A stretch of DNA of 64,000 nt from assembly GCA_022072175.1 (NCBI GenBank), contig JAJVIE010000003.1, forward strand, positions 1,134,483 through 1,198,482, in the 5' to 3' direction. Source of the DNA: Candidatus Omnitrophota bacterium. GTDB lineage: Bacteria > Omnitrophota > Gorgyraeia > 2-02-FULL-51-18. The position numbers were made by a program, and so were the translations under genes. Each line of letters starts with the position of its first letter. Within the stretch, counting starts at the first letter, position 1. Below, piece after piece: positions 5,251 to 23,905 of the stretch. The notes beneath the pieces are model-generated. The model was not told where the DNA came from, searched no databases, and worked only from the letters and a program-made list of their open reading frames with translations.

Positions 5251-6189
5251 CTAGGAGTGGGCGGCGCCGTCCTTGCGGGGCCAGAGGATCGAGGCGATCA
5301 CGGACAGGGCCAGCACACCCACGATCACACCCAGAGCGATCCCGATCGGCACATGATAATAGTGCGAAGCGAGCATCTTGCAGCCGACGAACACCAGGAT
5401 CACGGCCAGTCCGTAGTTGAGGTAGTGGAAGAGCTTCATCAGTCCCGCCAGCGCGAAATACAGCGCCCGTAGACCCAGGATCGCGAAGACGTTGGACGTG
5501 TAGACGATGAAGGGGTCCGTCGTGATGGCCAGGATCGCCGGGATGGAATCCACCGCGAACACCACGTCCGTCGACTCGATGATGATCAGCACCAGGAACA
5601 GCGGGGTCACGTACCAGCGGCGGTCTTCCTTGACGACCAAGCGGCCCTCCCGATACCCGTCGGTGACCGGCAGGATACGGCGGAAGAACAGCATGACGGG
5701 GTTCTTCTCGGGATGCATCTCCTTATCCTTGCCGCTGCCGATCTTGATGCCCGTGTACACCAAGAACGCTCCGAAGACATAGATGATCCAGTGGAAGCGC
5801 TCGATCAGCGCCACTCCGGCGAGGATGAAGACGGCCCGCATCACCAGAGCCCCGAGGATACCCCAGAACAGCACCCGGTGCTGGTACATCGACGGCACCT
5901 TGAAGTATGAGAACACCAGCACGAACACGAACAGGTTGTCCACGCTCAGGGATTTCTCGAGCACATAGCCGGCGAGGAACTTCATCGCCTTCTCGGGTCC
6001 GGCGAAATGATAGACGCCCAGGTTGAAAGCCAGCGCCAGCGCGATCCAGAACGCGCTCCAACCGAGCGCCTCCCCGAGATGGACCTCGTGGGCCTTGCGG
6101 TTGAACACCGCCAGGTCCAGCCACAACATGACCGCAACGAACGTCACAAAACCGCCCCACAACAACCAAGGACTCATCGTCTCCCCCAT
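5251..6189 (-). CDS. TerC-family integral membrane protein (Alx/YoaE-like)
   Basis: Multi-TM protein with SLSVDNLFVF and AVDSIPAI motifs. Chosen Met (MGETMSPWLL) at 6187-6189 forms an ATGA overlap with the malQ stop. The longer track ORF overlaps malQ. Confidence 0.85.
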   Translation of the reverse strand: MGETMSPWLLWGGFVTFVAVMLWLDLAVFNRKAHEVHLGEALGWSAFWIALALAFNLGVYHFAGPEKAMKFLAGYVLEKSLSVDNLFVFVLVFSYFKVPSMYQHRVLFWGILGALVMRAVFILAGVALIERFHWIIYVFGAFLVYTGIKIGSGKDKEMHPEKNPVMLFFRRILPVTDGYREGRLVVKEDRRWYVTPLFLVLIIIESTDVVFAVDSIPAILAITTDPFIVYTSNVFAILGLRALYFALAGLMKLFHYLNYGLAVILVFVGCKMLASHYYHVPIGIALGVIVGVLALSVIASILWPRKDGAAHS

Positions 6190-8045
6190 CAGATCCGCCC
6201 GGTCCGCTCGACAAGCCCGCGGATCAGCGATGTTTCGGCCAGTTTGGTCAGACGCTCGATCGGAGCCGGCAGCACGATCGACCAGTTGGCATCGCTGGTC
6301 ACTCCCGGAAAGTTGATCCGGTAGTCCCAAGCGTCCATACCGGGCAGTTCCGCCGGCGCCAGCCAATCCTGCAGGAGCTGGACACTGAAGACCGACGCGC
6401 TGTTCAGCGAAGCGCCCAGGGCGGCCCGCAAGAACTCAGGCGTGGCGCGCTCGGACGGCGTCCCCTTGAGCCCCACGGCCGACCAATAATCGCTCCGCTC
6501 GCGGGACGTCGACCGGAAGGCCTCGAAGAGCGCCCTCGGCCGATGACCGCCGACCAGCCGAGACAGGGCCTCTTCGCTGTCCAGGGTCTCTTTCCAGCGC
6601 AACCGCCCGTAGCGCGAGCTCTTCTCATCGAACAGCTCGCCCCGGAGCGTTTCGGCGTCGAGCCCGGCCTCGGCGCACCAGCTGGCGAAAGAATACGTAT
6701 CGATCGTGCCCGCCTCGGCCTCCCACCATTGCCGCAAAGGCGAGATATCATGCGTCGAAACGACGCACACGGCGTTGGGGCGGTATTCCTCGGGGGACTT
6801 GAAAGCGGCGCCGGGGCGGTCCCAGTGCCGGCTCCAGCGCTGGATATCGGTACCCGGAAGCCCGGTCTCGCGGAGCAGGGCGTAGGAACAATCGGGCACC
6901 GTGCCCAAGTCCTCGGCCACCGGCAGCATCCTCGTCGAGCTCAGGATGGCCGACAGGATGCGGCGGCCGTGCGCCTCCCAGATATCGGTATCGGGCGGAT
7001 CGAAGGCCCCCTTGCCGCCCGGAGCGTCCTGAAAAGCCCAGACGCGGAAGATCCCCACGAAGTGATCGAGGCGGAAAAGATCGTAGAACGTCTCGGCGTA
7101 CAAGAGCTTGCGGCGGAGATACCGGTAAGCGTCCTTCTCGATCGCCGGCCAATCGTACGGTGGCATCCCCCAACGCTGACCCTCGGCGAAGCACAGGTCC
7201 GGGGGAGCTCCCGCGGCGAGGTCCAATTTGAAATACCGCTGTTCGGCCCAGACGTCGGCGCTGTCGCGCGACACCAGAAACGGCAGGTCCCCCAAAAGAA
7301 GGACGCCCATACGGCCGAGCGCGGCGTGCGCGGCCGCGAACTGCTCATGGCACTGCCACTGCAGCCATTCGTGGTACTCGATCTCGACCGCGCGCTCTCG
7401 CAGGAACGCCTCGTACTCGGCCCCGCTGCGGTGACGGAACGGCTCCGGCCAGTCCCACCAGGCCCGCTGACCGTAGATCGACTTGAGGACCTTGTACTGC
7501 GCGTACGGCCCGAGCCACTCGGCGCACCGGCGGCGGAACGCCGCGAACGCGGCCGGACGCTTGCCCTGCCGATCGAAGATCGATCGCAGCGCTTCGAGCT
7601 TGGCGCGCTTGACGGCGGTATCGTAGCGGACGCGGCCCTGGGGTCCGTACGTACGGCGGATACGGGCCGCCGCCAGACGTCCCGCTCCGGCGCCGCCGCC
7701 GCGCACGGCCCCGAGGCACAGGTGCATCGGCTCGAGCGCGATGGAACTCTCGGCATCGTACGGTCGGAACGTGTAGCCGACGTCGTTCATCGGCAGGAGC
7801 TGGAGGATGGACAGTCCGGCGGCGCGGGCCCATCGACCCAGCGGCACCAGGTCCGGGTACTCGCCGACACCGGCGGAGGTTTCCGAGTAGACGGAGAACA
7901 GGGGTGTGGCCACGCCCGCGCGGCGGCGGGCGCCGATCCGGGACCAATGCGCGCGGGCCGGACCCTGCAGGAAGGACGCGTACACCGTACCTCCGGTGCC
8001 GGTCGCGCGTCGAGCTCGCCTGAGAGATGGTGCTTGTTTGGTCAT
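6189..8045 (-). CDS. malQ: 4-alpha-glucanotransferase (amylomaltase, GH77)
   Basis: SILQLLPMND motif and GH77-length product. Start MTKQAPSL is Met22 of the track ORF. The upstream Met would overlap the divergent gene. Confidence 0.9.
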   Translation of the reverse strand: MTKQAPSLRRARRATGTGGTVYASFLQGPARAHWSRIGARRRAGVATPLFSVYSETSAGVGEYPDLVPLGRWARAAGLSILQLLPMNDVGYTFRPYDAESSIALEPMHLCLGAVRGGGAGAGRLAAARIRRTYGPQGRVRYDTAVKRAKLEALRSIFDRQGKRPAAFAAFRRRCAEWLGPYAQYKVLKSIYGQRAWWDWPEPFRHRSGAEYEAFLRERAVEIEYHEWLQWQCHEQFAAAHAALGRMGVLLLGDLPFLVSRDSADVWAEQRYFKLDLAAGAPPDLCFAEGQRWGMPPYDWPAIEKDAYRYLRRKLLYAETFYDLFRLDHFVGIFRVWAFQDAPGGKGAFDPPDTDIWEAHGRRILSAILSSTRMLPVAEDLGTVPDCSYALLRETGLPGTDIQRWSRHWDRPGAAFKSPEEYRPNAVCVVSTHDISPLRQWWEAEAGTIDTYSFASWCAEAGLDAETLRGELFDEKSSRYGRLRWKETLDSEEALSRLVGGHRPRALFEAFRSTSRERSDYWSAVGLKGTPSERATPEFLRAALGASLNSASVFSVQLLQDWLAPAELPGMDAWDYRINFPGVTSDANWSIVLPAPIERLTKLAETSLIRGLVERTGRI

Positions 8046-8056
8046 TTCTCGTCTTC

Positions 8057-8062
8057 TATAAT
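8057..8062 (+). promoter_or_regulatory. Candidate -10 box (TATAAT) for the AI-2E transporter gene
   Basis: tctTATAATaacagaggccaaacgacccgATG. A perfect TATAAT sits 20 nt upstream of the 8083 start, in the 37-nt divergent intergenic region. Confidence 0.35.
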
Positions 8063-8082
8063 AACAGAGGCCAAACGACCCG

Positions 8083-9144
8083 ATGGAACAAAAAAACCCC
8101 CTCATCACGTATTCGTTCGCGATCCTGCTGCTGTTCGTGCTGTATCAGGTCACGTTGATCCTGTGGCCGTTCTACATCACGCTCTTCTGGTCGGCGATCA
8201 TCGCTTTCGCCTTTCATCCGGCTTACCGGCGACTGGCGGACCGGATGGGTGGCCGCCGCACCGCGGCCGCTCTCCTGGTGACGGTGGTGATCCTGCTGGC
8301 CTGCGCGCCGCTGGCGTCCCTCTTCCTCTTCAGCCTGGTCTCCGAGTCGCTCCGCTCGTACGCGTGGATCTCGGAGAAGATCACCGGCGGTTCGCTCAAG
8401 AGCACTTTCGACTGGTTCGACGCCTTGCCGATCGTCAACCGGTTGGAGTCGTTCATCGGTTTCGACCTCACGCGCGACCACATCAAGCGCTGGATGCTGC
8501 AGGCCGCGGGGTCCGCCGCCAACTACGCCGCCGCGCACGCCGCGACACTCACCCGGGATGTCCTGAGCGGTATTTTCAACTTTTTCCTGACGTTCTTCCT
8601 GGTGTTCTTCATGCTGAGGGACGGCACCGGGATCCGTCGTTTCGTCTATGACCTGACGCCCCTGGGCAGTGACACCAAGGAACAGATCTTCACGATGCTC
8701 GAGGAGACGTTCGCGGCCGTGCTTCGGGGACAGATCCTGACCGCACTGGCCCAATCCCTGGTGGCGGGCCTGATCTTCTGGGCGCTGGGACTGCCTCTGC
8801 CGGTCCTGTTCGCGACGGTGATGTTCTTCACGTCGATGATCCCGGTGCTGGGAGCGACCTCGGTGTGGCTGCCGTTCGTCGTCTATCTGGTCCTGCAGGG
8901 GGCGATGGTCAAGGCGGGGATCCTGCTGGTGCTGGGGGTCTTCGTGATCAGCTTCATCGACAATCTGCTCAAGCCCTGGCTCATCGGGGACAAGACCAAG
9001 CTACCCTACCTCCTGCTCTTCCTGGGCATCCTCGGAGGTCTCCAGCTCTACGGGATCGTCGGGATCTTCATCGCCCCGGCGGTCCTGTCGCTGTTCTTCA
9101 CCCTCATCAAGATCTATCGCGAACAGTTCCTGACGAGCCGCTGA
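8083..9144 (+). CDS. AI-2E family transporter (PerM/YhhT, UPF0118)
   Basis: 353 aa, 8 TM helices. Its 3' end overlaps the convergent gene by 38 nt. Confidence 0.85.
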   Translation: MEQKNPLITYSFAILLLFVLYQVTLILWPFYITLFWSAIIAFAFHPAYRRLADRMGGRRTAAALLVTVVILLACAPLASLFLFSLVSESLRSYAWISEKITGGSLKSTFDWFDALPIVNRLESFIGFDLTRDHIKRWMLQAAGSAANYAAAHAATLTRDVLSGIFNFFLTFFLVFFMLRDGTGIRRFVYDLTPLGSDTKEQIFTMLEETFAAVLRGQILTALAQSLVAGLIFWALGLPLPVLFATVMFFTSMIPVLGATSVWLPFVVYLVLQGAMVKAGILLVLGVFVISFIDNLLKPWLIGDKTKLPYLLLFLGILGGLQLYGIVGIFIAPAVLSLFFTLIKIYREQFLTSR

Positions 9145-10789
9145 GCGGACGCCGTTTGGAGAAGATGGTGTAGAGGTACGGAGCGGCCAGCGCCGCGTAC
9201 AGCACCTGCCTCAACCGCTTGACCAGGCTCAGCGCGATGCCATGGGCCGCGCTGCCGCTCGAATAGGCCGCCAGATACGCCAACCCCTGTTCCTGGGCCC
9301 CGAGATTGTGGGGGATGAAGAACGTCACGGTCTGCACCGCCTGCATCACCTGCTGGATCACGAAGGCCTGCGTCAGCGTGATCTCCACGCCGAAGATACG
9401 GAACACGAAATAGACCTCGAGCAGGAAAGCCGTCCATCCCAGAGCGTGCCACATCGAGGACCTCAGCAGGTCCCCGCGCCGTTCGTTGAGCAACGACCGC
9501 AGTTCCAAGCCCATGAAACCCTTGAGCCGGGCGACCTCCTCATCGGACAAGCTCGAGCCGATCCTCGCGGCCATGCCGGGCAGGAGCTTGGCCAACCCCT
9601 GCCCCGACCCCCACAGGAGCCCCACGTAGATCACCGAGAACACGGTGGCCGCGCCCCCCACCCACAGGATGGCCGCGTCCGCGCCGCGCGCCAGTACGAT
9701 ACCCAGCGCGACCAGCACCACGAGGATCTCGCTGGTGGCGTACACGAGACGGGCGAAACAGATCGCGCGCACGGATTCCTCGAGCGTGGCCAAGCCCTTC
9801 TTGTACACCAGGAGGACCTTGAGCGGCTCGCCTCCGATATCCACGAACGGCGTGATCTTGTTGAACGAATCCCCGGCCAGGAAGATCCCGTACAACCGGC
9901 CGAACGGAATGGAACGCCGCGTCCTCTCGGGAAAGAGGTCGTACAGACCGAGCGTGTACAGCAGGCCTGTCAGCGGGAACACGAGCATCACCAGTCCCAG
10001 GCCCAAGCCGCCCTTGGACAGCAGGCCTCCGACCTCGGACCATGTCACGCCCTTCAGCGCCGACCAGAAGAGCCACAACCCCAGACCCAGGGCCGCGGAC
10101 TTACCCGCCCACAGGAGCGTGCGTCCGGACGACCAGCCGGTCAGCCGCTCCCAATTGGTGACCAGCCGCGTGATCCAGAGGATGTTGATGTAACCGGCCC
10201 CGACCGCCAGGAAGCCGGCGACATTGAGCGTGAGGACCGCCAGCCAGGCCAGGACGATGGAATCGCCGTTGTGGCTGAGCGTATCAAGAAAGGAGAAGAA
10301 GAGGCTTTTCTTGCGTCCCTCGCTGACGCCGTCCGCATGATAGGACGTACTGCATCCGACCGCGCGCTCCCGAACGACGATCAGGGCATGGAGGATCGAT
10401 CCCAGTACGGCCGCGACGTAGAGCTCTTCGGCCGGGAAGTCCCTGAACATCGCGTAATGACGGACGCCGAAGTACGCGCCCGTCCAGAGCGACAGGTCCA
10501 CCAGCAGGTCCGAGAACAGGTCGTACCACTTACCGAAGCGGGTGCGCCAGTCCCGCAGCCGCGCCAGCTCTCCGTCGCAGTTGTCCAACAGGAACGACAA
10601 GTGCAGCCAGGCGACCCCCAAGAGCAGGCAGGTCTGCGTGCCGAACGACACCGTCGCTCCGGCGAACACGCCGCAGAGCAACGCCAGGGTCGTCACGAAG
10701 TTCGGGGACACGCCGGTGCGGGCCAAGAACCGCGTCAGGAGGCCGGAGATCTTGCGGTTGACCTGAAGATAGGGTCTAAGGTCTTTCAT
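9107..10789 (-). CDS. Fusion protein: N-terminal CDP-alcohol phosphatidyltransferase with a C-terminal flippase-like domain (UPF0104 / lysyl-PG-synthase-TM-like)
   Basis: N-terminus carries the CDP-OH transferase signature DNCDGELAR...G...D...D. The remaining ~380 aa are polytopic with glycine-rich helices, typical of the TIGR00374/UPF0104 flippase-like family. Confidence 0.75.
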   Translation of the reverse strand: MKDLRPYLQVNRKISGLLTRFLARTGVSPNFVTTLALLCGVFAGATVSFGTQTCLLLGVAWLHLSFLLDNCDGELARLRDWRTRFGKWYDLFSDLLVDLSLWTGAYFGVRHYAMFRDFPAEELYVAAVLGSILHALIVVRERAVGCSTSYHADGVSEGRKKSLFFSFLDTLSHNGDSIVLAWLAVLTLNVAGFLAVGAGYINILWITRLVTNWERLTGWSSGRTLLWAGKSAALGLGLWLFWSALKGVTWSEVGGLLSKGGLGLGLVMLVFPLTGLLYTLGLYDLFPERTRRSIPFGRLYGIFLAGDSFNKITPFVDIGGEPLKVLLVYKKGLATLEESVRAICFARLVYATSEILVVLVALGIVLARGADAAILWVGGAATVFSVIYVGLLWGSGQGLAKLLPGMAARIGSSLSDEEVARLKGFMGLELRSLLNERRGDLLRSSMWHALGWTAFLLEVYFVFRIFGVEITLTQAFVIQQVMQAVQTVTFFIPHNLGAQEQGLAYLAAYSSGSAAHGIALSLVKRLRQVLYAALAAPYLYTIFSKRRPLSGSSGTVRDRS

Positions 10790-10849: not shown

Positions 10850-10885
10850 CAAAAAAAGACCCGCCCCGGCTGTCGGGGCGGGTCC
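10850..10885 (-). terminator. Rho-independent terminator downstream of the OMP gene
   Basis: Minus strand reads GACCCGCCCCGacagcCGGGGCGGGTC followed by TTTTTTTG. Perfect 11-bp stem plus T-run, immediately 3' of the stop at 10899. Confidence 0.8.
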
Positions 10886-10898
10886 GGGCGGCTCGAGG

Positions 10899-11456
10899 TC
10901 AGCCGAAGAGGTACTTGATGCCCCCGCCTACGGCCACGTAATCGAGATCGTCATTGGCGGTCGAACCGCTCGGCAGGTCGCCCGGGTCCGTCCAACTGGC
11001 CTCGAAGTTGAGCGCCCAGTTGGAGTTGACGAACCAATCGACGCCGCCGCCCAACTTCCAAGCGAAAGCCGAATCGTCGCGGTCATCACGGTCCTCGATG
11101 GACGCGTAACCCGAAGCGGCGCCGAGGCCGAGCACACCGTAAGGCACGAACTCCTGTCCCTCGATATGCCAGCGCAGGATCACGTCGCCCATGATGTTGG
11201 CGATACCGACCTCGCCGGGCTCGGACTCATGCTCGCCCTGCTGCCAACCACCCTCCACACCCAAGGCGATCCACGGGGTCACACCGTAAGACATATTGAG
11301 CCCCACATAGGCCGCATCATCGATGGAGTTGTCGTTGAACGCTCCTGCCACGTAGCCGCCCAGATCGACCTTCCCCACGCGGTCGGGCGCCGTAGCCAAG
11401 GCGCTACCGCTGATCCCGAACATCATGACCATGGCCAGAACCGAGATCTTTTTCAT
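10899..11456 (-). CDS. Small outer-membrane beta-barrel protein (OmpW/OmpA-TM-like)
   Basis: Signal peptide MKKISVLAMVMMFGISGSALA, alternating amphipathic strands, C-terminal ...YLFG. AT-rich promoter region at 11457-11517 and a G-rich RBS. Confidence 0.8.
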   Translation of the reverse strand: MKKISVLAMVMMFGISGSALATAPDRVGKVDLGGYVAGAFNDNSIDDAAYVGLNMSYGVTPWIALGVEGGWQQGEHESEPGEVGIANIMGDVILRWHIEGQEFVPYGVLGLGAASGYASIEDRDDRDDSAFAWKLGGGVDWFVNSNWALNFEASWTDPGDLPSGSTANDDLDYVAVGGGIKYLFG

Positions 11457-11517
11457 ACGACCCCCCCTGAGAAAGCGTTATTAAAAAATAACAATGACCA
11501 CGAACAATTTATCAAAA

Positions 11518-12711
11518 CTAAGCTTTTCCGTCAATCCTCGTCGTCGCCGGACGGCGGCTTTCCAGGTGATAGGTCAGTTCAGTGGGTGCGATATCCGCGA
11601 TCTGCAGGGATTCGGGTAGGGCAAAATCGGCCGGACCGAGCGTCAGCGTACCGGTCCTCCGGCGCACATGCTGGGCGTGCACGCGCACGCGGATATCCTC
11701 GGCGCTCAAGAAATAGAACTCCTTGCGGGGACCGGACAGCGTCACATCGACCCGCTCCGGCAGGATCGTGGCGCCCTTGAGGGCCGGAGGCAGCTCCAGG
11801 CGCGCGGCGGGGATCACGTAGGTGCGTTGGACGATACCGGCGCCGTGCACGTTGACGAACCAGAGCGAAGAAGACAACACCAGGGCGAGCATCTTCTCGG
11901 CCCAGTTGCGACGAACAAAACCCGCGAACGCCGAACGCGGGTCTTCCGGACGCACCCGCTCCAAATGCGCCCGGATACGCCGCTCGAGCACGCTGGCGTC
12001 CTCCGCCCGTTCGATGCGTCCGGCCTCGGCCATCGACAGCGTCCCTTTCTCTTCGGAGACCACTAGGCACAGCGCGTCGGACACTTCGGACAATCCCAGA
12101 GCGGCGGCATGCCGCGTACCCGACCGATCGAGCTGGGAGAGGCTCTTGGACAACGGTAGGTGCGCCGAGAACAGCGTCACGCGTCCGTCCTCGATGACGA
12201 TCGCCCCGTCATGCGATGGCGAGGTCGGCTCGAAGAGACTCTTGATCAACGGTTCGCTCAGCCGTCCGCCGAGCTCCACCCCACCCGTCAGGTGCCGTGA
12301 CAACAGATCGTTACCGCGCAGGACCACCAAAGCCCCGACACGCTCGCGCGCCAGATCGGCCAGCGTGCGCGCCAGGAGGACCGCGTCGGGCGAGCGGTCG
12401 CCCGTCGAGCGGCGCCGCCCGGGATGGAGCCCCCAGAGCGCGACCTGCTCGAAGAAATGCCTCAACTCCTCTTGAAAGAGGACCACCGCGGCGATCAGGA
12501 TGACCGTGAAGAAGGCCTGAAAAACGGCGGCCGTCATCCACAACTGGAACTGCCGCGCCAGAACGTAGACGACGCCCATGATGAGGATACCGATGAGCAC
12601 GAAAGCCGCCCGGGTGCGCTTGACCAGCACGAGGGCCGTGTAGATCAGGAGAGCCAGGATCAGGATATCGGCGGCACCGGACAGCATGGTCGGCTCCCAG
12701 GTCAGGTTCAT
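11518..12711 (-). CDS. cdaA: Diadenylate cyclase CdaA with fused C-terminal YbbR/CdaR-like domain
   Basis: Three N-terminal TM helices. DAC domain motifs HDGAIVI and TRHAAALGLSE. About 200 extra C-terminal residues are beta-rich and YbbR-like. The chosen Met (MNLTWEPT) gives an ATGA overlap with the NUDIX stop. An alternative Met lies 24 nt downstream. Confidence 0.85.
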   Translation of the reverse strand: MNLTWEPTMLSGAADILILALLIYTALVLVKRTRAAFVLIGILIMGVVYVLARQFQLWMTAAVFQAFFTVILIAAVVLFQEELRHFFEQVALWGLHPGRRRSTGDRSPDAVLLARTLADLARERVGALVVLRGNDLLSRHLTGGVELGGRLSEPLIKSLFEPTSPSHDGAIVIEDGRVTLFSAHLPLSKSLSQLDRSGTRHAAALGLSEVSDALCLVVSEEKGTLSMAEAGRIERAEDASVLERRIRAHLERVRPEDPRSAFAGFVRRNWAEKMLALVLSSSLWFVNVHGAGIVQRTYVIPAARLELPPALKGATILPERVDVTLSGPRKEFYFLSAEDIRVRVHAQHVRRRTGTLTLGPADFALPESLQIADIAPTELTYHLESRRPATTRIDGKA

Positions 12712-13283
12712 CGCCGGGGACCCGGCCAAGACAACCCCAAGAGCGAGGCGGTCTTGACGAGCGCGACGATGCTCTGCCCGTCGGACAATACCCCCGAACG
12801 GAGCATCCGCGCCAACTCCGCCCAAGGGACGAAGCGCAAGTCGCTGATGCCTTCGGCGGCGGAGCCGTCCGGACGCGGAGCGTGCTCGAGGTCCTTCGCC
12901 AGATAGGCGTAGGACAGTTCCCCGGAAAGGCCGTTGACCGTCTGCCAAACGCCCGCGCTCCTCCAGGAGCGGGCGCTCAAACCCGTCTCTTCGAACAGCT
13001 CCCGACGGGCCGCGCGCAGAGGGGGCTGTCCTTCGGAGTTGCCTCCGGGCAGTTCCCACGAATCGCGGTCCGTCGGATAACGATGGATGCGGATGAGCCC
13101 GACCCGGGAACGCTCGTCGAGAGCGACCACGAAGACCGAAGGCCCCCGCGTCTCGATGACGTAGTACGCGCCGGGGCGGCCGTCGGGACGGCGGATACGG
13201 TCACGCCGGACGTGGTACCAGGGATTACGATGGACGACGCGTGAACCCAGGCGCAGCCAGGGTCCGCGGCGCTCAGTTGCCAT
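12708..13283 (-). CDS. NUDIX hydrolase
   Basis: Nudix box ELPGGNSEGQPPLRAARRELFEETG. Overlaps the glpX stop by 11 nt. Confidence 0.85.
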   Translation of the reverse strand: MATERRGPWLRLGSRVVHRNPWYHVRRDRIRRPDGRPGAYYVIETRGPSVFVVALDERSRVGLIRIHRYPTDRDSWELPGGNSEGQPPLRAARRELFEETGLSARSWRSAGVWQTVNGLSGELSYAYLAKDLEHAPRPDGSAAEGISDLRFVPWAELARMLRSGVLSDGQSIVALVKTASLLGLSWPGPRR

Positions 13284-14187
13284 GATAGACGGTGAACCAG
13301 CGGACCGTACCGCTGGTGGAGCGCATGAACACGCTGTGCGTGACCGGGCCGCGCGTCGTGTACCGGACCCCGCGCAGCAAACTGCCGTCGGTGATGCCGG
13401 TGGCGGCGAACGCGCACTCGCTCCTCACCAGGTCATGGAGCTCGTAGACCCTGGGCTCCGTGCCGCCGTCCTTGCGGACGATCTGGGTCTGCATGTCCCC
13501 TTTGAGGCACTTGATCGCGCAGGCCGCCAGAACCGCCTCGGGCGAGCCGCCGATACCGACGAGCAGGTCGATACCGCTCTCCTCCTGACAGGTCGCGATG
13601 GCCGCCGACACGTCGCAGTCCTGGATGAGCTTGATGCGCACGCCCAGCGACCGGAGCTCCGCGATGAGCTTCTCATGACGCGGCCGGTCGAGCACGCACA
13701 CGAGGATGCGGCCCCGGTCCTTGCCGGTGGCCTTGCTGACCAGGTCGACGGTGCGCGACAAAGGATCGGTGATGGAGAGCTTCGTCTTGGCCGCGATCTC
13801 CGGGCCATAGGCGAGCTTGTTCATGTAGAACTCCGCCGTGGAGAACAGCGCGTCCTTTTCGGCCACGGCCAGCACGCTCAACGCCTCGGGCCCCGAGTGC
13901 GCCGTAGGCCGCGTCCCCTCGATCGGGTCGACAGCCAGATCATAGACCTTCGCGGACGGGTTGCCGAGGTCCCCGACCACCTCTCCGGCGAAAAGACCGG
14001 GGCTCTCGTCCTTGATCCCCTCTCCGATGACGACGCGGCCCTTGAAATCCATCGTGTCCAGACGCTTGCGCATCGCGTCCGTCGCGGCCTGGTCGGCCGC
14101 TTTCTTGTCGCCGCTGCCCACCCACGCCGAGGCCGAGATCGCCGCGGCTTCCGTCACACGCACCATGTCGAGATTGATATGTTTCAC
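13273..14187 (-). CDS. glpX: Class II fructose-1,6-bisphosphatase
   Basis: 304 aa, MKHINLDMVRVTEAAAISASAWVGSGDKKAADQAA. Canonical GlpX N-terminus and length. Confidence 0.95.
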   Translation of the reverse strand: MKHINLDMVRVTEAAAISASAWVGSGDKKAADQAATDAMRKRLDTMDFKGRVVIGEGIKDESPGLFAGEVVGDLGNPSAKVYDLAVDPIEGTRPTAHSGPEALSVLAVAEKDALFSTAEFYMNKLAYGPEIAAKTKLSITDPLSRTVDLVSKATGKDRGRILVCVLDRPRHEKLIAELRSLGVRIKLIQDCDVSAAIATCQEESGIDLLVGIGGSPEAVLAACAIKCLKGDMQTQIVRKDGGTEPRVYELHDLVRSECAFAATGITDGSLLRGVRYTTRGPVTHSVFMRSTSGTVRWFTVYHGN

Positions 14188-14219
14188 GTAAGCCCTCGGG
14201 GTTGATGGGGCTTATCTTA

Positions 14220-15701
14220 TCACGAAGCTCCGCCGACCGCCTCCAGTGCCGCGGCGATCTCCGTCGTCGACGACGGCGCCGGGCGTCCAAGACCGTAGTA
14301 GACGACCGGTACGCGCGCGTCGTAGGCATAAGGCGTTCCGTGCGAAGCGCGGGTGTTCTTCTCCGAGGAACGCACGAGGATCGTGCCGGGACGCTGCAGC
14401 AGGTACACATCGCCTCCGGCCGACGGCGCCAGCGAGCGGCGCGCATGACGGGGACCCTGTCCGGCCAAAAGGTCGCTGGCGGTATAGGCGTTGCGGAGCC
14501 TGCCGTCCCTGCGCAGATACCGCACCGCCTCGCGCGCGGCCTCGCCAGGGTCCGCTCCCACAGCGGACAAGGCCGTCCGGTCCAGATAGATCAACGGCCC
14601 GGCCCAACCCCGCACGGCTCTCCCGACCCCGTAACGCGCCTTCAAGTACCCATCGAGGTCCGCCGCTATTCGATCTCCGTCCACCCTGTCGGATGGCTCG
14701 ACGGCTCTTGAGAAACCATGGTCGGAAGTCAGCGCCAACACGTAGCCGGACGGCCCCGCCGTACCCTCGAGAACCTCGATGAGTTCCGCCAGATGGATCG
14801 ACAACCTCCTCAGCACCCACGCCGACTCCGGACTTTCCGGGCCCCACCGGTGATTGGCGGCATCGAGCGCTGAAAACCCGACAGCCAGAACGTCCGTCCT
14901 CCCGCTCCCGGCGCCGATGCCGGTGGATGCGATCAGCTCCCGGACGAAAGCCAGCGTCGCCTCGTCCCGCGTGAGGATGTTGGACCTCCAGCGGGAACGA
15001 CGCGCTCCCGGGGCGGCCCGCTCGCTCCTAGCGTAGTAACGCCTCCACCATGCGGGGTAATCGTGGCGATAGTAGCGGCTCGTAACGAACCGCGCGCTGC
15101 GATCGCTGAAGAAGTACGCCTCACCCCGCCGGCCGGCCAGCAACACGGCCGACCGGTCCTTGGCGGCCACCGCGTAATACAACGTCTCCGGGCGCGAGGC
15201 CTTCCAGCGGTCGCCGAACGTGTCGGCGAGCAGATGCTTGGGAGAGATCCCGGAGCGGTCCTTGAGACGATCCCCCAAGACCGGATAAGCGCTATCCTCG
15301 ACACAGTAGACCTTGTGTCCGGAGGCGGGGTCGATCCATGAGTTGGCGCAGACGCCGTGCGTGGAGGGATGGACGCCCGTGGCCAACGTCGCGTGTCCGG
15401 GGGCCGTATACGTGGCCGCGTACCCGTAACTCGCGCGGCCGTTGACCGACGAAGCCGCCAGGAGCTTTCTAAGAGACCGAGGCGCGGAAGGGCCTGAAAA
15501 CTCCGAGAACTGACGTGAGGTAAGTCCGTCGATCACGATCAAAACCGCAAGCCGGGGCGGCATCGAAGCGGCCGGTGCCTCGACGAGCGATCGAGCGGCC
15601 GGAGCGGCTGAACCGGCCGTAATGAGACCCATCAGCGGGACGATCAGGCTGAGACGAACGACGTTGGACCGGATGCACCATGGCTTCACCTCGCTTTCCA
15701 C
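14220..15701 (-). CDS. Secreted alkaline-phosphatase-superfamily nucleotide pyrophosphatase/phosphodiesterase (ENPP-like)
   Basis: Signal peptide. Motifs VIDGLTSRQF and TYTAPGHATLATGVHPSTHGV match type I phosphodiesterase (PF01663-like) metal and catalytic Thr sites. Confidence 0.75.
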   Translation of the reverse strand: MESEVKPWCIRSNVVRLSLIVPLMGLITAGSAAPAARSLVEAPAASMPPRLAVLIVIDGLTSRQFSEFSGPSAPRSLRKLLAASSVNGRASYGYAATYTAPGHATLATGVHPSTHGVCANSWIDPASGHKVYCVEDSAYPVLGDRLKDRSGISPKHLLADTFGDRWKASRPETLYYAVAAKDRSAVLLAGRRGEAYFFSDRSARFVTSRYYRHDYPAWWRRYYARSERAAPGARRSRWRSNILTRDEATLAFVRELIASTGIGAGSGRTDVLAVGFSALDAANHRWGPESPESAWVLRRLSIHLAELIEVLEGTAGPSGYVLALTSDHGFSRAVEPSDRVDGDRIAADLDGYLKARYGVGRAVRGWAGPLIYLDRTALSAVGADPGEAAREAVRYLRRDGRLRNAYTASDLLAGQGPRHARRSLAPSAGGDVYLLQRPGTILVRSSEKNTRASHGTPYAYDARVPVVYYGLGRPAPSSTTEIAAALEAVGGAS

Positions 15702-15744
15702 GATGATCTCAGTCTAGCGCCGTTCCATGAAGATAGGATGAAGC

Positions 15745-16179
15745 TCATTCCTTACGCGGAGCGACCTTGGGCCACTCGGCATCGGGGTCCTCCTGGCGGG
15801 CTTCGAGGTAAGCAACGACGTCCGCCAACTGCCGGACGGTCATGACCTCGGAGAAGTTACGCATCGGGGACAGCCCGTTCTCAGCGGGCGCGAATCCTGG
15901 AGCGAACTCATGGGACGGGCGCGTGATGGCCAAGACCAGCTCTTGACGGGTCCGCACGGCATTGAGCCCGCCCAGCACTGGGGCCGGTACGCCCGAGATC
16001 GGCTCCGGCAGGTCCGCGTCCCCCAACACCCGGTGACAGGCGGAACACTGCAATCTCTTGAACGCCGCGCGTCCGGCCAGAGGGTTGCCGTCCACCGGGA
16101 CGGTCAGTACCGGCTCCTCGGCCGCCGCCGACAAGCACAACAACAATGAACCCACAAGACAGGACGTAGCGGTCTTCAT
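15745..16179 (-). CDS. Mono-haem c-type cytochrome (exported)
   Basis: Signal peptide MKTATSCLVGSLLLCLSAAA, haem motif CSACH. Confidence 0.7.
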   Translation of the reverse strand: MKTATSCLVGSLLLCLSAAAEEPVLTVPVDGNPLAGRAAFKRLQCSACHRVLGDADLPEPISGVPAPVLGGLNAVRTRQELVLAITRPSHEFAPGFAPAENGLSPMRNFSEVMTVRQLADVVAYLEARQEDPDAEWPKVAPRKE

Positions 16180-16202
16180 GACCGACCCCCTCTGGATCGA
16201 GC

Positions 16203-17390
16203 TTACTCCCCGGCGGCGGGCGGGGCCGTGACGGAGGTCACGCCCTGTGAGCCTTCTTCCTGAGAGGCGGCGGAGGGCGCCTCGGCCAGCAGCGCGTCGA
16301 GAAAATCCTGCTGGATAGGGCTTCCGAGTTGTTTGGCGCGCTGGGCATCCTCCAAGCTCTTGGCGTACTCGCCCTTGGCGAAGTAGGCGACGGCCCGGTT
16401 GTGATAGGCCTTCGCGTACTGGGGATCGATCTCGATGGCACGGCTGAAGTCCGCCACGGCCCTGTCGTCATCTCCCAGACGACCGTAAGTGACGCCTCTG
16501 TTGAAATACGCCCGCGCGTAGCCAGGGTCGGCCGTCACCGCCTCGGTGAAATCCGCGATCGCACGGTCGTTCTCGCCGATGGCCTGACGGGACAGGCCTC
16601 TGTTGTTGTAGGACCCCGCGAGGTTGGGGTTGATCTCGAGGGCTTTATTGAAGTCCCGGATCGCGCGGTCGTGTTGATCGAGCTTGGCGTAAGCGCGGCC
16701 GCGCGCGTGGTGCGACTCGGCGTCCGCCGGCGACAGCTCGATGGCGCGCGAGAGGTCGGCCAGCGCCGAGGCCGCCTCGCCCATCTCCAACCGGCAGTAG
16801 CCGCGGTTGAAATACGCGTCGGCGTCGGTCGGGTCCGACTCGATCTGGCGCGTGTAGTCGATGATCGCGTAGCCGTAGTCGCCCATCTCGGCGTAAGCGG
16901 CCGCGCGCGTCGAGCGGATCTGCGGGTAGTTCGGGTCCAGCTCGATGACCCGGCCGAAATCCTTGACCGCGTCCTCCAGGTCGCCCCGCAACTGGCGGGC
17001 CACGCCCCGATGGAAAAGCGCTTTGGCGCGGTCGGGTTCGAGCTCGAGAGTCTTGTTATAGTCCGCGATGGCCCGGTCCAGCCGGCCGGATTTCAGATGG
17101 CAATACCCGCGGTTGTTGTAGGCCTCGGCCGTCGGCGCGCTCTCGATCACCCGGTCCAGCAACCGCGTCGCGCCGGCATAGTCCCCCGCCGTCCCGGCGA
17201 CGAGCGCCCTCCGGTGGAGCTGTTCCGGCGACTCCGCGGAACAGCCGCTGAGGATCACGCCGCAAAGGCATACGGCCGTCAGCAGCGTTCTTTTCGAGCG
17301 CTCTGCCGGCACTTCTACGATGAGACCGGGCGAGGAGGTCATGCTTTCATTGTAGTCGAGCCCCGGTTCCAAGGAAAGGCGTCTGCTCAT
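16203..17390 (-). CDS. TPR-repeat lipoprotein
   Basis: Lipobox LSGC after a hydrophobic stretch, then at least 8 TPR repeats (AYNNRGY..., AYFNRGV..., etc.). An ATGA overlap with the upstream hydrolase stop occurs if Met1 is used. An alternative start at Met17 is 17342. Confidence 0.8.
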   Translation of the reverse strand: MSRRLSLEPGLDYNESMTSSPGLIVEVPAERSKRTLLTAVCLCGVILSGCSAESPEQLHRRALVAGTAGDYAGATRLLDRVIESAPTAEAYNNRGYCHLKSGRLDRAIADYNKTLELEPDRAKALFHRGVARQLRGDLEDAVKDFGRVIELDPNYPQIRSTRAAAYAEMGDYGYAIIDYTRQIESDPTDADAYFNRGYCRLEMGEAASALADLSRAIELSPADAESHHARGRAYAKLDQHDRAIRDFNKALEINPNLAGSYNNRGLSRQAIGENDRAIADFTEAVTADPGYARAYFNRGVTYGRLGDDDRAVADFSRAIEIDPQYAKAYHNRAVAYFAKGEYAKSLEDAQRAKQLGSPIQQDFLDALLAEAPSAASQEEGSQGVTSVTAPPAAGE

Positions 17391-18232
17391 TCTCGGAGCA
17401 CCGATCGGACCCAGGCGGAGACCCCGTCCCGGTATTCGGGCCTCCCGTCGGGTACCGCGTGCGGGCCGCCGATCTCAAGGAAGGTCGCCCGGCCGGAAGG
17501 AGCGGCCTCGAACAGACGGCGCCCCTCCCCGTACGGGACCACGTCGTCCTCGCGGCTGTGCACGATGAGCGCCGGACTGCGCAGGAGCCCGATCTTGGAC
17601 AGGTTGTCATAACGGTATTTCAGGAAGAGGTCCACCGGCGCCCAAGGATACAAGCGCAGGGCCATGCTCCGGATGGAGCTGAAGGCCCCCTCCAGCACGA
17701 CGCCCGCGGACCCCCGCTCGACCGCCAGGTCCAGAGCGATGGCCGCGCCGAGCGACCGCCCCCAGATCAGGATCCGCTCCGGACGATGCCCTTTGACCTC
17801 CGTCAGGTATGCCCATGCCGAGCGCGCGTCCAGATAGGTCCCCTCTTCGTCGGGCTTGCCCTCACTGCGCCCGTAGCCGCGATAGTCGAAATACAGCGTA
17901 TCGAGCCCCATCGCGCGGAACAGCTTGAGCGAATCGACGTCGCCGGAGATGTTGCGCGCGTTGCCGTGGCAGAAGAGGACCGCTCCGCGGGACGCGCCCG
18001 GAGCGGGCACGTACCACGCCGACAACTCCGTTCCGTCGGCGCTCCGGAACCGCACATCCTCGTAGACGAACCCGAGGTCGGCCGGGGTCGCGGTCCACTC
18101 CCGGGTCGGATGATACAGGTGCGAGGCTTGATCCAGCGCCAGGCCGCCGACCTTGGCGCCGTAGACGCAGGCCAGGACCCCGGCTGTCAGGAGGAGCGGG
18201 ACAAGACTCGAGGAGCGGCGGGGACGGCTCAA
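17387..18232 (-). CDS. Alpha/beta-fold hydrolase
   Basis: Signal/TM N-terminus, HGNARN oxyanion region, GRSLG nucleophile elbow, and a downstream Asp/His. Confidence 0.8.
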   Translation of the reverse strand: MSRPRRSSSLVPLLLTAGVLACVYGAKVGGLALDQASHLYHPTREWTATPADLGFVYEDVRFRSADGTELSAWYVPAPGASRGAVLFCHGNARNISGDVDSLKLFRAMGLDTLYFDYRGYGRSEGKPDEEGTYLDARSAWAYLTEVKGHRPERILIWGRSLGAAIALDLAVERGSAGVVLEGAFSSIRSMALRLYPWAPVDLFLKYRYDNLSKIGLLRSPALIVHSREDDVVPYGEGRRLFEAAPSGRATFLEIGGPHAVPDGRPEYRDGVSAWVRSVLRE

Positions 18233-18786
18233 GGTCCGATCAGCACCGGAGTACCGACATCGACACGGTCGTACAGCTCCGCGACGTCCTCGTTCGTCAT
18301 CCGGATACAGCCGTTGGAGGCGGGCTTGCCGATCAGCCCTTCACTGGGAGTGCCGTGGATATAGATGAGCCGGCGGAAAGAATCGATACGACCGCCACGG
18401 TTCACGCCCCGCTCGAGCCCCTCGAGCCACAGGATGCGCGTGGTCACCAGATCCTCGGGAGCGCCCTTGGACGTGCGGTCGATCCGCGCGCGGACGCGGG
18501 TGTTCACCCGGTTGCGGAAAACGGTGTTGAGGGGCGCTCCGCCTCCGATCTTACGGGCGATGCGGTGGCGTCCGAGCGGGGTCTTGAGACTGCCGAGCTT
18601 GTTGCCCGTGCCGTACTTGGAGGTCGAGATCGGGTAGGTTCGCACGGCCCGACGGCCTTCGTAGAGCGTCATCGTCTGCGCCGAGACGCTGACCTTGAGC
18701 GAGAGTCCAGGACGCTCGGCGGCGGTCGCGGCGGCAGGTTGGACCGCCAGCGCGGCGACTACGACGGCCGTGAGCGCTCTCTTCAC
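18229..18786 (-). CDS. L,D-transpeptidase (YkuD domain)
   Basis: Signal peptide. Catalytic motif IHGT...SNGCIRM. Confidence 0.85.
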   Translation of the reverse strand: MKRALTAVVVAALAVQPAAATAAERPGLSLKVSVSAQTMTLYEGRRAVRTYPISTSKYGTGNKLGSLKTPLGRHRIARKIGGGAPLNTVFRNRVNTRVRARIDRTSKGAPEDLVTTRILWLEGLERGVNRGGRIDSFRRLIYIHGTPSEGLIGKPASNGCIRMTNEDVAELYDRVDVGTPVLIGP

Positions 18787-21416
18787 GCTCCGGCGGTCTG
18801 TGTCCGGCGGCTCACGGACCGTTCATCGGCCGTCGCGTAGGCCCCGAGCCAGGCGTACACCGTATCGCCGTCCCGGCGGGCCCAGCGCGAGGTGCTGCGC
18901 GCGGTCTCGATGGCCTGCTTGACCGACCGTTCGGTCCCGCGCACCGGATGTTGTCTGAGGAAAGCCTCGGCCGCCGAGATCTCGGAAGGATCGACGAACG
19001 ACGAGACCGCTCCTTCGATGATGCGCGACAGGAGCCCGACGTTGCCGCCTCCGAAGCGGCGCGACAACTCCGCCCATCGGGAGCGGATGAACTCCCAAGC
19101 GATCGCGCGACCGCGCGGATTGACGCCGAACCCGGACAGCACGATGAACGTATCCTGCTTGCGGACGTCCGCCGACAACGCCAGCTTGAGCGAAGCCCTG
19201 ACGGCGGAGACCTCGCGTGTGCGCGTGAGCGCCCGCAGGATGCGGACCTTCTCCTCCTGCAGGTCCGAAGCGCGATAGAGCTCCACCAACCTTTCGTGTT
19301 CGGCCTGACCGCCGGTCTCCGAGACGATGCCGTAAACGGTGGTCCGCAGGGTCGGGTCGATCGGCCTGCCTTTGAGGTGGCCCGCGAAACGTTCACGTGC
19401 TTCGGCGACGGTCCCCGCGTCGGCGTAGTGCCCCATGCGGGACAACAGCAGGGGTCTCAGCATCAAGGACAGATGGTCGTCCGAAGGGGATGCCGACCAG
19501 CCCATCCGCGCGGAGGCGGGCCCGAACAGGGTCCGGGCGAAGTTGGCCAGACGATGCTCGGCCAGCCCCTGCCCCTCGATCAGGCTCTCGATCTCGCCGA
19601 GGATCCCCGCGAGCGTCAGCCACACGTTGTAGTCGAGTTGACGGGCGCACGAACCGACCAGATCGAGCAAGAGCGTCACCGGCAGACGTCCGGCTCGACA
19701 GAGCGCGGCCGCATCATCGAGCACGCCCAGCATGTCGATCGCCTCAAGCCGGCCCGACCGAAGCGCCTCGGAGAGCGGCCCGAGCAGTTCCTCGGCGTAC
19801 CGGACCCGGTAGAACCCGCTTTGTCCGGGATTGACTTTGATCCAGCCGGGAGCGGTCTTGAAGGCGATCGTGCCGGTGGTGGCGTCGAGCAGCGTCGCGA
19901 CCTCACCCTGCCGCTCGGTCCTCACGGCGACCGGCACGCTCCAGGAAAGACCGCGGGCATCGGAGCCCCCGTCGAAGATGAAGCGCGACTGGCGCAGGTC
20001 CAGTCCGCGGCCGCGCGACCCTTCCGTCTCGGCGACCTCCACGACCGGAAATCCCTCCTGCCGGGTATAGGCGGCCATGAGCCGGCGGACCGGCTTTCCG
20101 GAGACCTGCTCGAGCACCGACCAGAGGTCGACCGTGCGCGCGTTGCCATAGGCGTACTTCTTGAGATAGACGTTGAGGCCCTTGCGCAGGACCGGCTCGC
20201 TCAGATAGTGCTCGAGCATGCGATTGACCGATGCGCCCTTGCTGTAGGTGATACCGTCGAAGATCTCGCGGATCTCATGGGGATTCTTCACGTCGATCTC
20301 GATCGGGTGGGTGTTGCGCAGCGCGTCGTCCCGCAGGGCTCCGAGATACTCGGTGGCGATGAACTGGCCCCAGATGTCCCACTCGGGGAACTGGTCGTGA
20401 ACGGCCTTGGGCCCCATGTACGAGGCGAAACCTTCGTTGAGCCACAGGTCGGTCCACCACTCCATGGTGACAAGATTGCCGAACCACTGGTGGGCCAGCT
20501 CATGGTCGATGACCTCGGCGACGCGCTGGCGGGCCTGCACGGAGGAGTTGTCCGGGTCCACCAGGAGAGCGGTCTCGCGATAGGTGACGAGTCCCCAGTT
20601 CTCCATCGCGCCCGAGGCGAAGTCGGGCAGGGCCACCATGTCCATCTTGGGCAGGGAGTAAGGGATGCCGAACCAGTCCGCGAAGTACGTGAGCGCGTGC
20701 TTGCCGACCTCGAGGGCGAAGCGGGCCTGCTTCTCTTTGCCCGGCGTGGTGTAGATGCGGATCGGCACGCCGTTCTTGTCCCGCCCGGCCACGTACACGA
20801 GATCGGCGACGACGAAACAGACCAGGTAGGTGGGCATCACCGGAGTGGTCCGATAACTGACCGCCTTGAGCTCCCCCGAGACGCGCTGGGACTTGACCGG
20901 CATGTTGGAGAGCGCGGTCAGCTGCTTGGGCACGCGGAGCGTGATGTCGAACGTCGCCTTGAGGTCCGGCTCGTCCCAGCACGGGAAACAGCGCCGGGCG
21001 TCGGTGGCCTCGAACTGCGTGGCCGCCCCCCAGCGCGTGGCGCCGTCGACGGTGTAGCGGGTGCGGTAGAAGCCGTGCATCTTGTCGTTGAGCTCGCCGG
21101 TGTACTCGAGAGCAAGCTCCCGCGCCTCCGACGGGCGCACGGTCCTCGGGAACACGAGCGTGACCGTCTCTTTGTCCTTATCGAAAGCGATGCGGGACGC
21201 TTTGAGCGGTCCCGAGGCGGTCGACAGTTCCGCCCGCTGGATCCGCAGGTCGAGCGCATGGAGCGTGATCGATCCGAAGGCCGATGCCGCTTTGATGCGG
21301 ACCGACTGACGGCCTTTGAACGCGAAGTTCGCGATATCGACGGTCAGATCGATCGCGTAGTGGACGGGAGTGACGGTGCGCTCGAGACGATAGGGGTTGG
21401 TCGCGGTCTTGGGCAT
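18783..21416 (-). CDS. pepN: Aminopeptidase N (M1 family)
   Basis: GAMEN exopeptidase motif and HELAHQWFGNLVT...E zinc site. 877 aa. Confidence 0.9.
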   Translation of the reverse strand: MPKTATNPYRLERTVTPVHYAIDLTVDIANFAFKGRQSVRIKAASAFGSITLHALDLRIQRAELSTASGPLKASRIAFDKDKETVTLVFPRTVRPSEARELALEYTGELNDKMHGFYRTRYTVDGATRWGAATQFEATDARRCFPCWDEPDLKATFDITLRVPKQLTALSNMPVKSQRVSGELKAVSYRTTPVMPTYLVCFVVADLVYVAGRDKNGVPIRIYTTPGKEKQARFALEVGKHALTYFADWFGIPYSLPKMDMVALPDFASGAMENWGLVTYRETALLVDPDNSSVQARQRVAEVIDHELAHQWFGNLVTMEWWTDLWLNEGFASYMGPKAVHDQFPEWDIWGQFIATEYLGALRDDALRNTHPIEIDVKNPHEIREIFDGITYSKGASVNRMLEHYLSEPVLRKGLNVYLKKYAYGNARTVDLWSVLEQVSGKPVRRLMAAYTRQEGFPVVEVAETEGSRGRGLDLRQSRFIFDGGSDARGLSWSVPVAVRTERQGEVATLLDATTGTIAFKTAPGWIKVNPGQSGFYRVRYAEELLGPLSEALRSGRLEAIDMLGVLDDAAALCRAGRLPVTLLLDLVGSCARQLDYNVWLTLAGILGEIESLIEGQGLAEHRLANFARTLFGPASARMGWSASPSDDHLSLMLRPLLLSRMGHYADAGTVAEARERFAGHLKGRPIDPTLRTTVYGIVSETGGQAEHERLVELYRASDLQEEKVRILRALTRTREVSAVRASLKLALSADVRKQDTFIVLSGFGVNPRGRAIAWEFIRSRWAELSRRFGGGNVGLLSRIIEGAVSSFVDPSEISAAEAFLRQHPVRGTERSVKQAIETARSTSRWARRDGDTVYAWLGAYATADERSVSRRTQTAGA

Positions 21417-23904: not shown

Positions 23905-23905
23905 G

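Follow-up and report, generated by a model that had tools for sequence, protein, structure and literature searches.

What is understood of cyclic di-AMP (c-di-AMP) control comes almost entirely from Firmicutes, in which two separate proteins, CdaR and GlmM, act on the diadenylate cyclase CdaA. In Bacillus subtilis, Listeria monocytogenes, and Staphylococcus aureus, CdaA (DacA) and CdaR (YbbR) are encoded in a cdaA-cdaR-glmM operon, and CdaR contacts CdaA through transmembrane segments while its YbbR domains lie outside the cell (PMC10243994, PMC8316131, PMC10636490). CdaR has been reported both to stimulate and to inhibit CdaA (PMC10636490). Fusions of the two proteins are already in the literature, as a review notes "large fusion proteins" in some strains of streptococci (A5LQF8, E1M7C3, and V8IIN0; PMC10243994), and these occur in a few strains of species that normally carry separate genes (PMC10243994). 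Here we analyze a 64,000-nucleotide stretch of the genome of a Candidatus Omnitrophota bacterium (the whole stretch is "the window" below), in which the gene cdaA (11518..12711) probably encodes a membrane-bound CdaA-type diadenylate cyclase that carries a CdaR-type partner in cis. All coordinates are positions in this 64-kb window, and the genes of the cluster that includes cdaA lie on its minus strand.

The cdaA gene begins with the ATG at 12711, a start that agrees with the N-termini of homologues and with independent gene calls, and encodes 397 amino acids (aa). The product is 100% identical to an NCBI protein from a metagenome-assembled genome labelled 'Candidatus Omnitrophica bacterium'. 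Its N-terminus forms three transmembrane helices (CdaA_N); after these come a DAC domain, a linker helix, and then a fourth helix that leads into a single YbbR-fold domain. Pfam matches CdaA_N (PF19293) over residues ~11-83 (12463..12681; 36.7 bits against a cutoff of 23.8) and the DAC catalytic domain (PF02457) over residues 116-232 (12016..12366; 111 bits, E = 3.2e-32). Three hydrophobic segments are visible in the N-terminal region, and helices 1 and 2 are joined by a KRTR loop. The DGA motif, read from the sequence as D168-G169-A170 (12202..12210), is invariant among 50 aligned homologues; the longer motifs HDGAIVI and TRHAAALG, picked out in an earlier note made from the DNA alone, lie at residues 167-173 and 199-206. 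In the full-length AlphaFold2 (AF2) model (predicted local distance difference test, pLDDT, of 85), helices occupy residues 7-32, 36-54, and 58-95, and the DAC domain extends over residues ~107-253, followed by the linker helix (258-268), helix 4 (270-289), and a beta domain (293-382). Foldseek superposes the DAC domain of this model on solved CdaA/DacA domains with a target-normalised template modelling (TM) score of ~0.90 and a root-mean-square deviation of 1.5-1.7 Å. No second DAC domain was found in the 64-kb window.

Past the CdaA core, as delimited by the end of the match to the CdaA family model TIGR00159 at residue 250, the protein extends for ~145 aa, comprising the linker, a transmembrane-like helix, and a YbbR-fold domain of ~90 aa. 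The earlier note had proposed a YbbR-like tail of ~200 aa within one polypeptide; the fusion and the YbbR nature of the tail stand, and the length was overestimated. Helix 4 (residues 270-289; 11845..11904) is modelled as a helix and would be a CdaR-type membrane anchor, and the single YbbR-fold domain (residues ~293-382; 11566..11835), recognized by profile, pairwise, and fold evidence, is predicted to be periplasmic. No second YbbR-like open reading frame (ORF) was found in the 64-kb window.

We compared the tail with standalone CdaR proteins. Searching with a profile of the tail against 1.84 billion cluster representatives retrieved 8413 proteins at E <= 1e-3, 1965 of them at E <= 1e-10. 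The matches form three groups: proteins of ~390-420 aa with the match at the C-terminus, fused proteins that have two YbbR domains and reach ~490 aa, and ~300-aa standalone proteins with the match at the extreme N-terminus. Pfam identifies the standalone group as genuine YbbR proteins (E 1e-17 to 1e-30). One of them, P0257 (Pfam E = 2.6e-30), is encoded in a tilS-ftsH-folP-cdaA-cdaR-glmM operon, where its gene overlaps a 265-aa cdaA by 4 nt and is followed by glmM. BLASTP aligned the window tail colinearly with P0257 over 130 residues (E = 8e-8), pairing the two anchor helices and the two YbbR-I domains, and the motif N-x3-K ... LWF of helix 4 is common to the anchor helix of this CdaR-like protein. 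Comparison of the tail alignment with P0258 by hhalign gave a probability of 98.6. We conclude, at the level of sequence, that the tail is the anchor helix plus the first YbbR domain of CdaR, fused to CdaA.

Family-level profiles were used for the tail after a Pfam search of the window tail alone had returned nothing. The domain search called for in the earlier note thus succeeded for DAC and, for YbbR (PF07949), in 20 of 50 homologues searched individually (best E = 6.5e-7), and failed for the window tail itself. When a profile of 35 tails was searched against the PDB, three matches were returned, all of them YbbR domains: 5hqh (E = 1e-5), which is Lmo2119, the Listeria CdaR, 2l3u (E = 0.022), and 2kq1 (E = 0.037). 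An AF2 model of the tail, a helix followed by a beta domain (pLDDT 90.1), gave 5hqh, 3lyw, 2kq1, and 2kpu (probability 0.98-1.0, target-normalised TM-score 0.55-0.69) as its best Foldseek matches, followed by ribosomal protein L25; the Foldseek E-values are modest (6e-3 to 0.1). L25 is a published structural relative of YbbR (PMC10636490), and the predicted tail structure has the L25-like YbbR beta fold. Among the 50 homologues (42-69% identity), the invariant or near-invariant tail residues are N269, K273, A276, W284, P301, P318, G327, R329, Y333, F334, P366, and P376; the first four, invariant, fall at helix 4, with N269 just preceding it.

The fusion extends well beyond this locus. The reading frame is unbroken from the DAC domain into the tail, and gene calling gave an identical 397-aa product on three contigs of independent assemblies, SRR10609168 and ERR10034884 among them. 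In length, all 120 best homologues resemble the query (query coverage at least 83%, and 92-99% for nearly all). We also assembled related loci from one genome per species, giving 80 loci, 78 with complete ORFs; all 78 ORFs are 388-462 aa long, with a median of 394. The scan patterns behind this set included GTRHAAALG, so that it is biased to this subfamily and uninformative on how frequent unfused CdaA is in the same phyla. Fused ORFs came from Omnitrophota, Binatia, Thermodesulfobacteriota/Deltaproteobacteria, Verrucomicrobiota, Bacteroidota, Elusimicrobiota, Spirochaetia, Planctomycetes, Nitrospiraceae, Dadabacteria, and KSB1. Judging from these sequences, the fusion is a defining trait of a large, widespread family and is not peculiar to the window locus.

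This compact fused architecture is common in many Gram-negative phyla and is already present in databases. Uncharacterized proteins of ~390-410 aa listed as 'diadenylate cyclase' from Thermodesulfobacteriota, Verrucomicrobiota/Opitutales, Acidobacteria, Binatia, Elusimicrobiota, and others share it, with 43-51% identity over 92-99% of the length and the same RH[A/S/T] active-site motif, and several members of the family carry public annotations as DAC plus YbbR (Pfam) or the name 'diadenylate cyclase'. Their gene neighbors differ from those in the window: a gene for a DHH/DHHA1 protein or for GlgE is often adjacent, and a glpX-nudix pair, which precedes cdaA here, never is.

Set beside the Firmicutes systems, the window protein shares the three-helix CdaA_N and the cytoplasmic DAC domain with its DGA motif, and its helix 4 and YbbR-fold domain are homologous to the CdaR N-terminus, where a single-pass anchor helix likewise leads into a YbbR-fold domain. 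By analogy, the expected logic would also be shared, an extracytoplasmic YbbR module controlling the cyclase through transmembrane contacts. The window system differs in being one polypeptide, in having one YbbR domain instead of three or four, and in reading RHA instead of RHR in the active site, and in its Gram-negative host the YbbR domain would face the periplasm. It thus departs from the strict CdaR layout, being no separate protein and having one YbbR domain, while the anchor helix is homologous. The gene immediately downstream of the window cdaA encodes an outer membrane protein (OMP) beta-barrel and not GlmM, and a GlmM-type [ST]ASHNP phosphohexomutase loop is absent from all frames of the 64-kb window; by comparison, the locus L085 has cdaA-cdaR-glmM intact. 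Our reading of the sequence is that the window protein probably works like CdaA plus CdaR, although it lacks the RHR motif, a TIGR00159 score at cutoff, a multi-domain standalone CdaR, and linkage to glmM.

The streptococcal fusions likewise combine CdaA and CdaR in a single chain. From the wording of the review that mentions them, they appear to carry full-length CdaR. The window form is, by contrast, compact (~390-400 aa, one YbbR domain) and a conserved state across many phyla. Searching the literature for a described compact CdaA-YbbR fusion, we found only the streptococcal mention (PMC10243994).

These comparisons suggest how the fused protein may have arisen and how it may work. Loss of the overlapping stop and start of cdaA and cdaR could have produced the fusion, with CdaR truncated to one YbbR domain. 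Since positively charged residues lie in the KRTR loop after helix 1 and as RR before helix 4, the N-terminus is predicted to lie outside, the DAC domain in the cytoplasm, and the YbbR domain in the periplasm. The predicted cyclase would convert two ATP to c-di-AMP in head-to-head dimers of the DAC domain. The tethered helix-4/YbbR module would tune this activity through the transmembrane bundle, as CdaR does in trans in Firmicutes, most likely by modulating the formation of DAC dimers or oligomers in response to an envelope cue. A stable natural fusion of this kind holds one YbbR domain and the CdaR anchor helix at 1:1 stoichiometry with the cyclase, which supports the view that CdaR has its functional core in the helix and first YbbR domain. 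For structural and biochemical work in Gram-negative lineages, a single chain is also the simpler system.

Several points weigh against this reading. TIGR00159 spans CdaA residues 9-250 at 161.1 bits and misses the equivalog cutoff of 188.8; this score and the RHA motif bear on the catalytic competence of the window CdaA, which is assumed here. The Pfam search of the window tail alone gave no match, even at an E of 10. Helix 4 is less hydrophobic than its counterparts in homologues, with SSS and N inside it, and its 19-residue Kyte-Doolittle mean stays below the threshold of 1.6, so that membrane insertion and, with it, a periplasmic YbbR domain are predictions made for a helix that is only moderately hydrophobic. 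Finally, the regulatory effect of CdaR is unsettled in the literature, so that the sign of regulation is not predictable for the fused protein (PMC10636490).

We then considered the genes around cdaA. Upstream of it lie a NUDIX gene (12708..13283; 191 aa) and glpX (13273..14187; 304 aa), the latter for a class II fructose-1,6-bisphosphatase (FBPase). The overlaps described in the earlier note are present in the sequence: 11 nt between the glpX stop and the NUDIX ATG (13273-13283) and 4 nt between the NUDIX TGA and the cdaA ATG, which together read ATGA (12708-12711). A 513-aa maximal ORF from the GTG at 13059 was dropped as a gene model for cdaA, being a spurious upstream extension into the NUDIX gene. 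Directly upstream of glpX, across a 32-nt gap, is a gene for an ENPP/PafA-like exported phosphodiesterase or phosphatase (14220..15701; 493 aa). Its orientation is as the earlier note had it, and its place, given there as two genes further upstream, is one gene above glpX and three above cdaA.

Directly downstream of cdaA is the OMP beta-barrel gene (10899..11456), 3' of which is a strong terminator-like hairpin (10857..10885, minus strand) with a 12-bp stem, 10 GC pairs, and a T-run. No minus-strand terminator-like site was found between 15701 and 10899, and the hairpin probably marks the end of the transcription unit. A match to a sigma-70-like promoter (minus strand, 11506-11534; TTGACG, 17 nt, TAAATT, TG-extended) coincides with the final codons of cdaA; it lies a short way upstream of the OMP gene and may serve that gene as an internal promoter. 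The cluster is itself part of a minus-strand run of ~10 co-directional genes (10899-21416) separated by 4-nt overlaps or gaps of at most ~60 nt, in the order M1 aminopeptidase, YkuD L,D-transpeptidase (~18229-18786), alpha/beta hydrolase, tetratricopeptide repeat (TPR) protein, cytochrome c, ENPP-like protein, glpX, nudix, cdaA, and OMP. Because the functions in this tightly packed run are mixed, co-orientation of the cluster genes says little by itself. The hairpin at 10857-10885 is the only strong one of its kind for this run.

GlpX is well matched over its full length (PF03320, E = 3.8e-109, 364.7 bits; TIGR00330, 282.8 bits against a cutoff of 259.3). The NUDIX protein matches PF00293 (E = 1.2e-15) and carries NDPSase_N and NUDIX in precomputed annotation. 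Its Nudix box, GGNSEGQPPLRAARRELFEETGL (residues 80-102; 12978..13046), keeps the REx2EE core of the consensus Gx5Ex7REUxEExGU intact, with Q instead of E at position 7, and is near-identical in three homologues of the lineage, differing only at three non-signature positions. The best solved relative is 1mk1, the M. tuberculosis ADP-ribose (ADPR) pyrophosphatase Rv1700 (E = 8.7e-20), followed by NudF and a Thermus ADPRase (Ndx); the window protein aligns nearly full-length with 1mk1, and no NCBIfam equivalog cutoff was reached by it. From this similarity we classify it as a NUDIX enzyme of the ADP-ribose/ADP-sugar pyrophosphatase type, which differs from the known ADP-ribose pyrophosphatases in that its gene uniquely overlaps a cdaA start codon. 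NUDIX enzymes cleave pyrophosphate bonds, and neither c-di-AMP nor pApA has such a bond; the protein is therefore unlikely to be a c-di-AMP-degrading enzyme.

Outside four lineage-specific sequences (71-99% identity), identity to this NUDIX protein falls abruptly to ~50%, and the named matches at that level are actinobacterial: Conexibacter, Cellulomonas, Oerskovia, and Humibacillus (the P0275-P0293 set). Because of this abrupt drop and the actinobacterial origin of the next matches, the sequences suggest horizontal acquisition of the NUDIX gene. Two metagenome scans for NUDIX relatives found none.

The ENPP-like protein matches PF01663 (E = 1.7e-35) and begins with a hydrophobic segment consistent with a signal peptide. 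Against the PafA model NF042991 it scores 217 bits and misses the equivalog cutoff of 650. By sequence it resembles a PafA-like exported phosphatase.

Of the alternatives to our reading of the locus, the one that survives best is that these genes form a functional module in which glpX, cdaA, the gene for the NUDIX enzyme, and perhaps that for the ENPP-like protein join the synthesis of c-di-AMP to gluconeogenesis and the hydrolysis of nucleotide sugars; flux into alpha-glucan storage, for instance, might be set under c-di-AMP control by an ADP-sugar pyrophosphatase together with FBPase. The start/stop overlaps imply co-translation, and in our own reading too cdaA is probably co-transcribed and translationally coupled with the NUDIX gene and, here, also with glpX. 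The type of the NUDIX enzyme would suit such a module, as would the GH77 (glycoside hydrolase family 77) and phosphoenolpyruvate (PEP) carboxylase genes nearby in the window and the presence of GlgE within 6 kb of fused cdaA in 21 of 80 related loci. The arrangement is also kept, in whole or in part, in close relatives. A relative with a CdaA 70% identical (L084) keeps glpX-nudix-cdaA with the same overlaps, and another with a CdaA 68% identical (L083) keeps nudix-cdaA only, with the same ATGA overlap and without glpX; their NUDIX proteins are 71-72% identical to that of the window and retain the signature residues of the Nudix box.

We nevertheless consider such a module unlikely. No homologue of GlpX, NUDIX, ENPP, cytochrome c, or TPR was found within 6 kb of fused cdaA in the 80 related loci, and an OMP homologue was found near it in one. 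The glpX gene is missing from L083, and neither of two more distant NUDIX relatives examined, actinobacterial-like and ~50% identical, lies beside DAC genes. The genes sit within a tightly packed run of mixed function, the chemistry of NUDIX enzymes requires a bond that c-di-AMP and pApA lack, and the ENPP-like protein is apparently exported while synthesis of c-di-AMP is cytoplasmic. The evidence does not support linking c-di-AMP in general to FBPase or ENPP, and the proposal in the earlier note that c-di-AMP synthesis is tied to nucleotide hydrolysis and central carbon metabolism is left largely without support. Nor do NUDIX and GlpX take the place of glmM, as that note also suggested: they are not a like-for-like replacement, because they lie upstream of cdaA whereas the canonical cdaR and glmM lie downstream. 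We infer that the glpX-nudix-cdaA arrangement is restricted to a narrow lineage; local operon packing accounts for it most simply, without a general module joining c-di-AMP to carbon metabolism. What speaks against simple packing is the ATGA-coupled nudix-cdaA pair, whose retention at ~70% identity leaves room for a real lineage-specific link. Unless such a lineage-restricted coupling proves functional, the arrangement matters little.

Other neighbors recur in the related loci. In 26 of 80 loci, a gene adjacent to fused cdaA and in the same orientation encodes a DHH/DHHA1 protein of ~355 aa; in 24 it is directly upstream, with gaps of 44-430 nt (for example, L018:4864-5940 and L077:4205-5284). 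The protein matches Pfam DHH/DHHA1 weakly, and searches for relatives gave only weak matches to family II Mn-pyrophosphatases. It could be a c-di-AMP/pApA phosphodiesterase or a pyrophosphatase; these weak matches do not suffice to assign it as a c-di-AMP phosphodiesterase. No homologue of it was found in the 64-kb window. The gene for GlgE (alpha-1,4-glucan:maltose-1-phosphate maltosyltransferase) lies within 6 kb of fused cdaA in several phyla, and in 12 of the 21 loci it is directly downstream on the same strand (examples are L007:5166-7154, L029, and L052). In the window, a GH77 4-alpha-glucanotransferase (6189-8108) and PEP carboxylase (774-3494) are encoded near the cluster, and there may be a recurrent association of cdaA with alpha-glucan metabolism.

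A broader proposal would take the compact CdaA-helix-YbbR proteins as a distinct, mostly Gram-negative class of c-di-AMP synthase, defined by one periplasmic YbbR domain, an RH[A/S/T] motif, and no adjacent GlmM. A cue from the envelope or periplasm would control such proteins in cis, and they would be wired to carbon storage instead of GlmM, elsewhere through DHH/DHHA1 and GlgE and here through the coupled ADP-sugar pyrophosphatase and GlpX. Taken as a whole, this proposal is speculative, and we regard it as improbable.

An alternative that we hold to be still less probable concerns the active site. R200-H201-A202 of the window protein (12106..12114), within GTRHAAALG, is a variant of the canonical RHR; the sequence is GTRHRAA in the four solved CdaAs shown aligned and in the unfused CdaA of L085, which has the canonical operon. 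Among 184 tail-bearing DAC proteins, the third position of the motif is A in 151 (GTRHA), S or T in 24, and R in 5 (GTRHR). By these alignments, the second Arg of RHR has been lost in the fused family. In the literature RHR is called highly conserved and necessary for binding of the ligand (PMC8573169), and changing it to AAA in M. tuberculosis DisA abolished both ATP binding and activity (PMC3328451). Together with the sub-cutoff TIGR00159 score, the RHA of the window protein might therefore mean that its DAC domain is impaired and that the protein is a sensor, a scaffold, or a c-di-AMP- or ATP-binding protein and not a cyclase. However, the published DisA mutant changed all three residues and not the last Arg alone; our literature search for single-residue RHR mutant data found none. 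In the alignment of 50 homologues, R200 and H201 are invariant together with DGA, G198, and an SEE segment (S219-E221), and T199 is nearly so. The substitution is moreover family-wide (A, S, or T in 175/184), with evident purifying selection across phyla, and the DHH/DHHA1 phosphoesterase-like gene that adjoins the fused gene in 26/80 loci fits a pair for nucleotide turnover. These observations favor an active cyclase and make an impaired one quite unlikely. The family-wide change from RHR to RHA could show which active-site residues are truly needed.

It is very improbable that the C-terminal domain is an unrelated periplasmic beta-domain with a superficial likeness to YbbR. The missing Pfam match of the window tail and the modest Foldseek E-values could be read that way, but Pfam does detect YbbR in 40% of homologues, the profile search of the PDB returned YbbR structures only, the pairwise and profile matches to genuine CdaR take in the anchor helix, and the top structural matches are all YbbR or L25. 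These four independent lines concur, with no competing identity, and the earlier note's concern that the extension might show no YbbR similarity is answered at the profile, pairwise, and fold levels. The note's other concern, that a frameshift in sequencing or assembly had artificially joined separate cdaA and cdaR genes, starts from a real feature, in that canonical cdaA and cdaR overlap by 4 nt and a single indel could therefore fuse them, but we rejected it as having a negligible probability, given identical products in independent assemblies, a long form conserved across phyla in all 120 best homologues and 78/78 genome loci, and a tail that is one YbbR domain with family-specific invariant residues and not a three- or four-domain CdaR.

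We also looked at the remainder of the window. An Rfam scan of the whole window (1-64000, both strands) found no family at gathering score, including the c-di-AMP (ydaO/kimA) riboswitch. Beyond the terminator-like hairpin, the minus strand encodes a 560-aa protein (9107-10789) that combines a CDP-alcohol phosphatidyltransferase with a transmembrane region of the lysylphosphatidylglycerol-synthase type (flippase-like). The syntenic locus L083 is without this phosphatidyltransferase protein and has an AI-2E transporter gene directly after its cdaA. On the other side of the cluster, also on the minus strand, a protein with HisKA_7TM and PAS (22330-23970) has a match to a 'diguanylate-cyclase-like sensor' domain, placing another sensor of the nucleotide-signalling type near the cluster.

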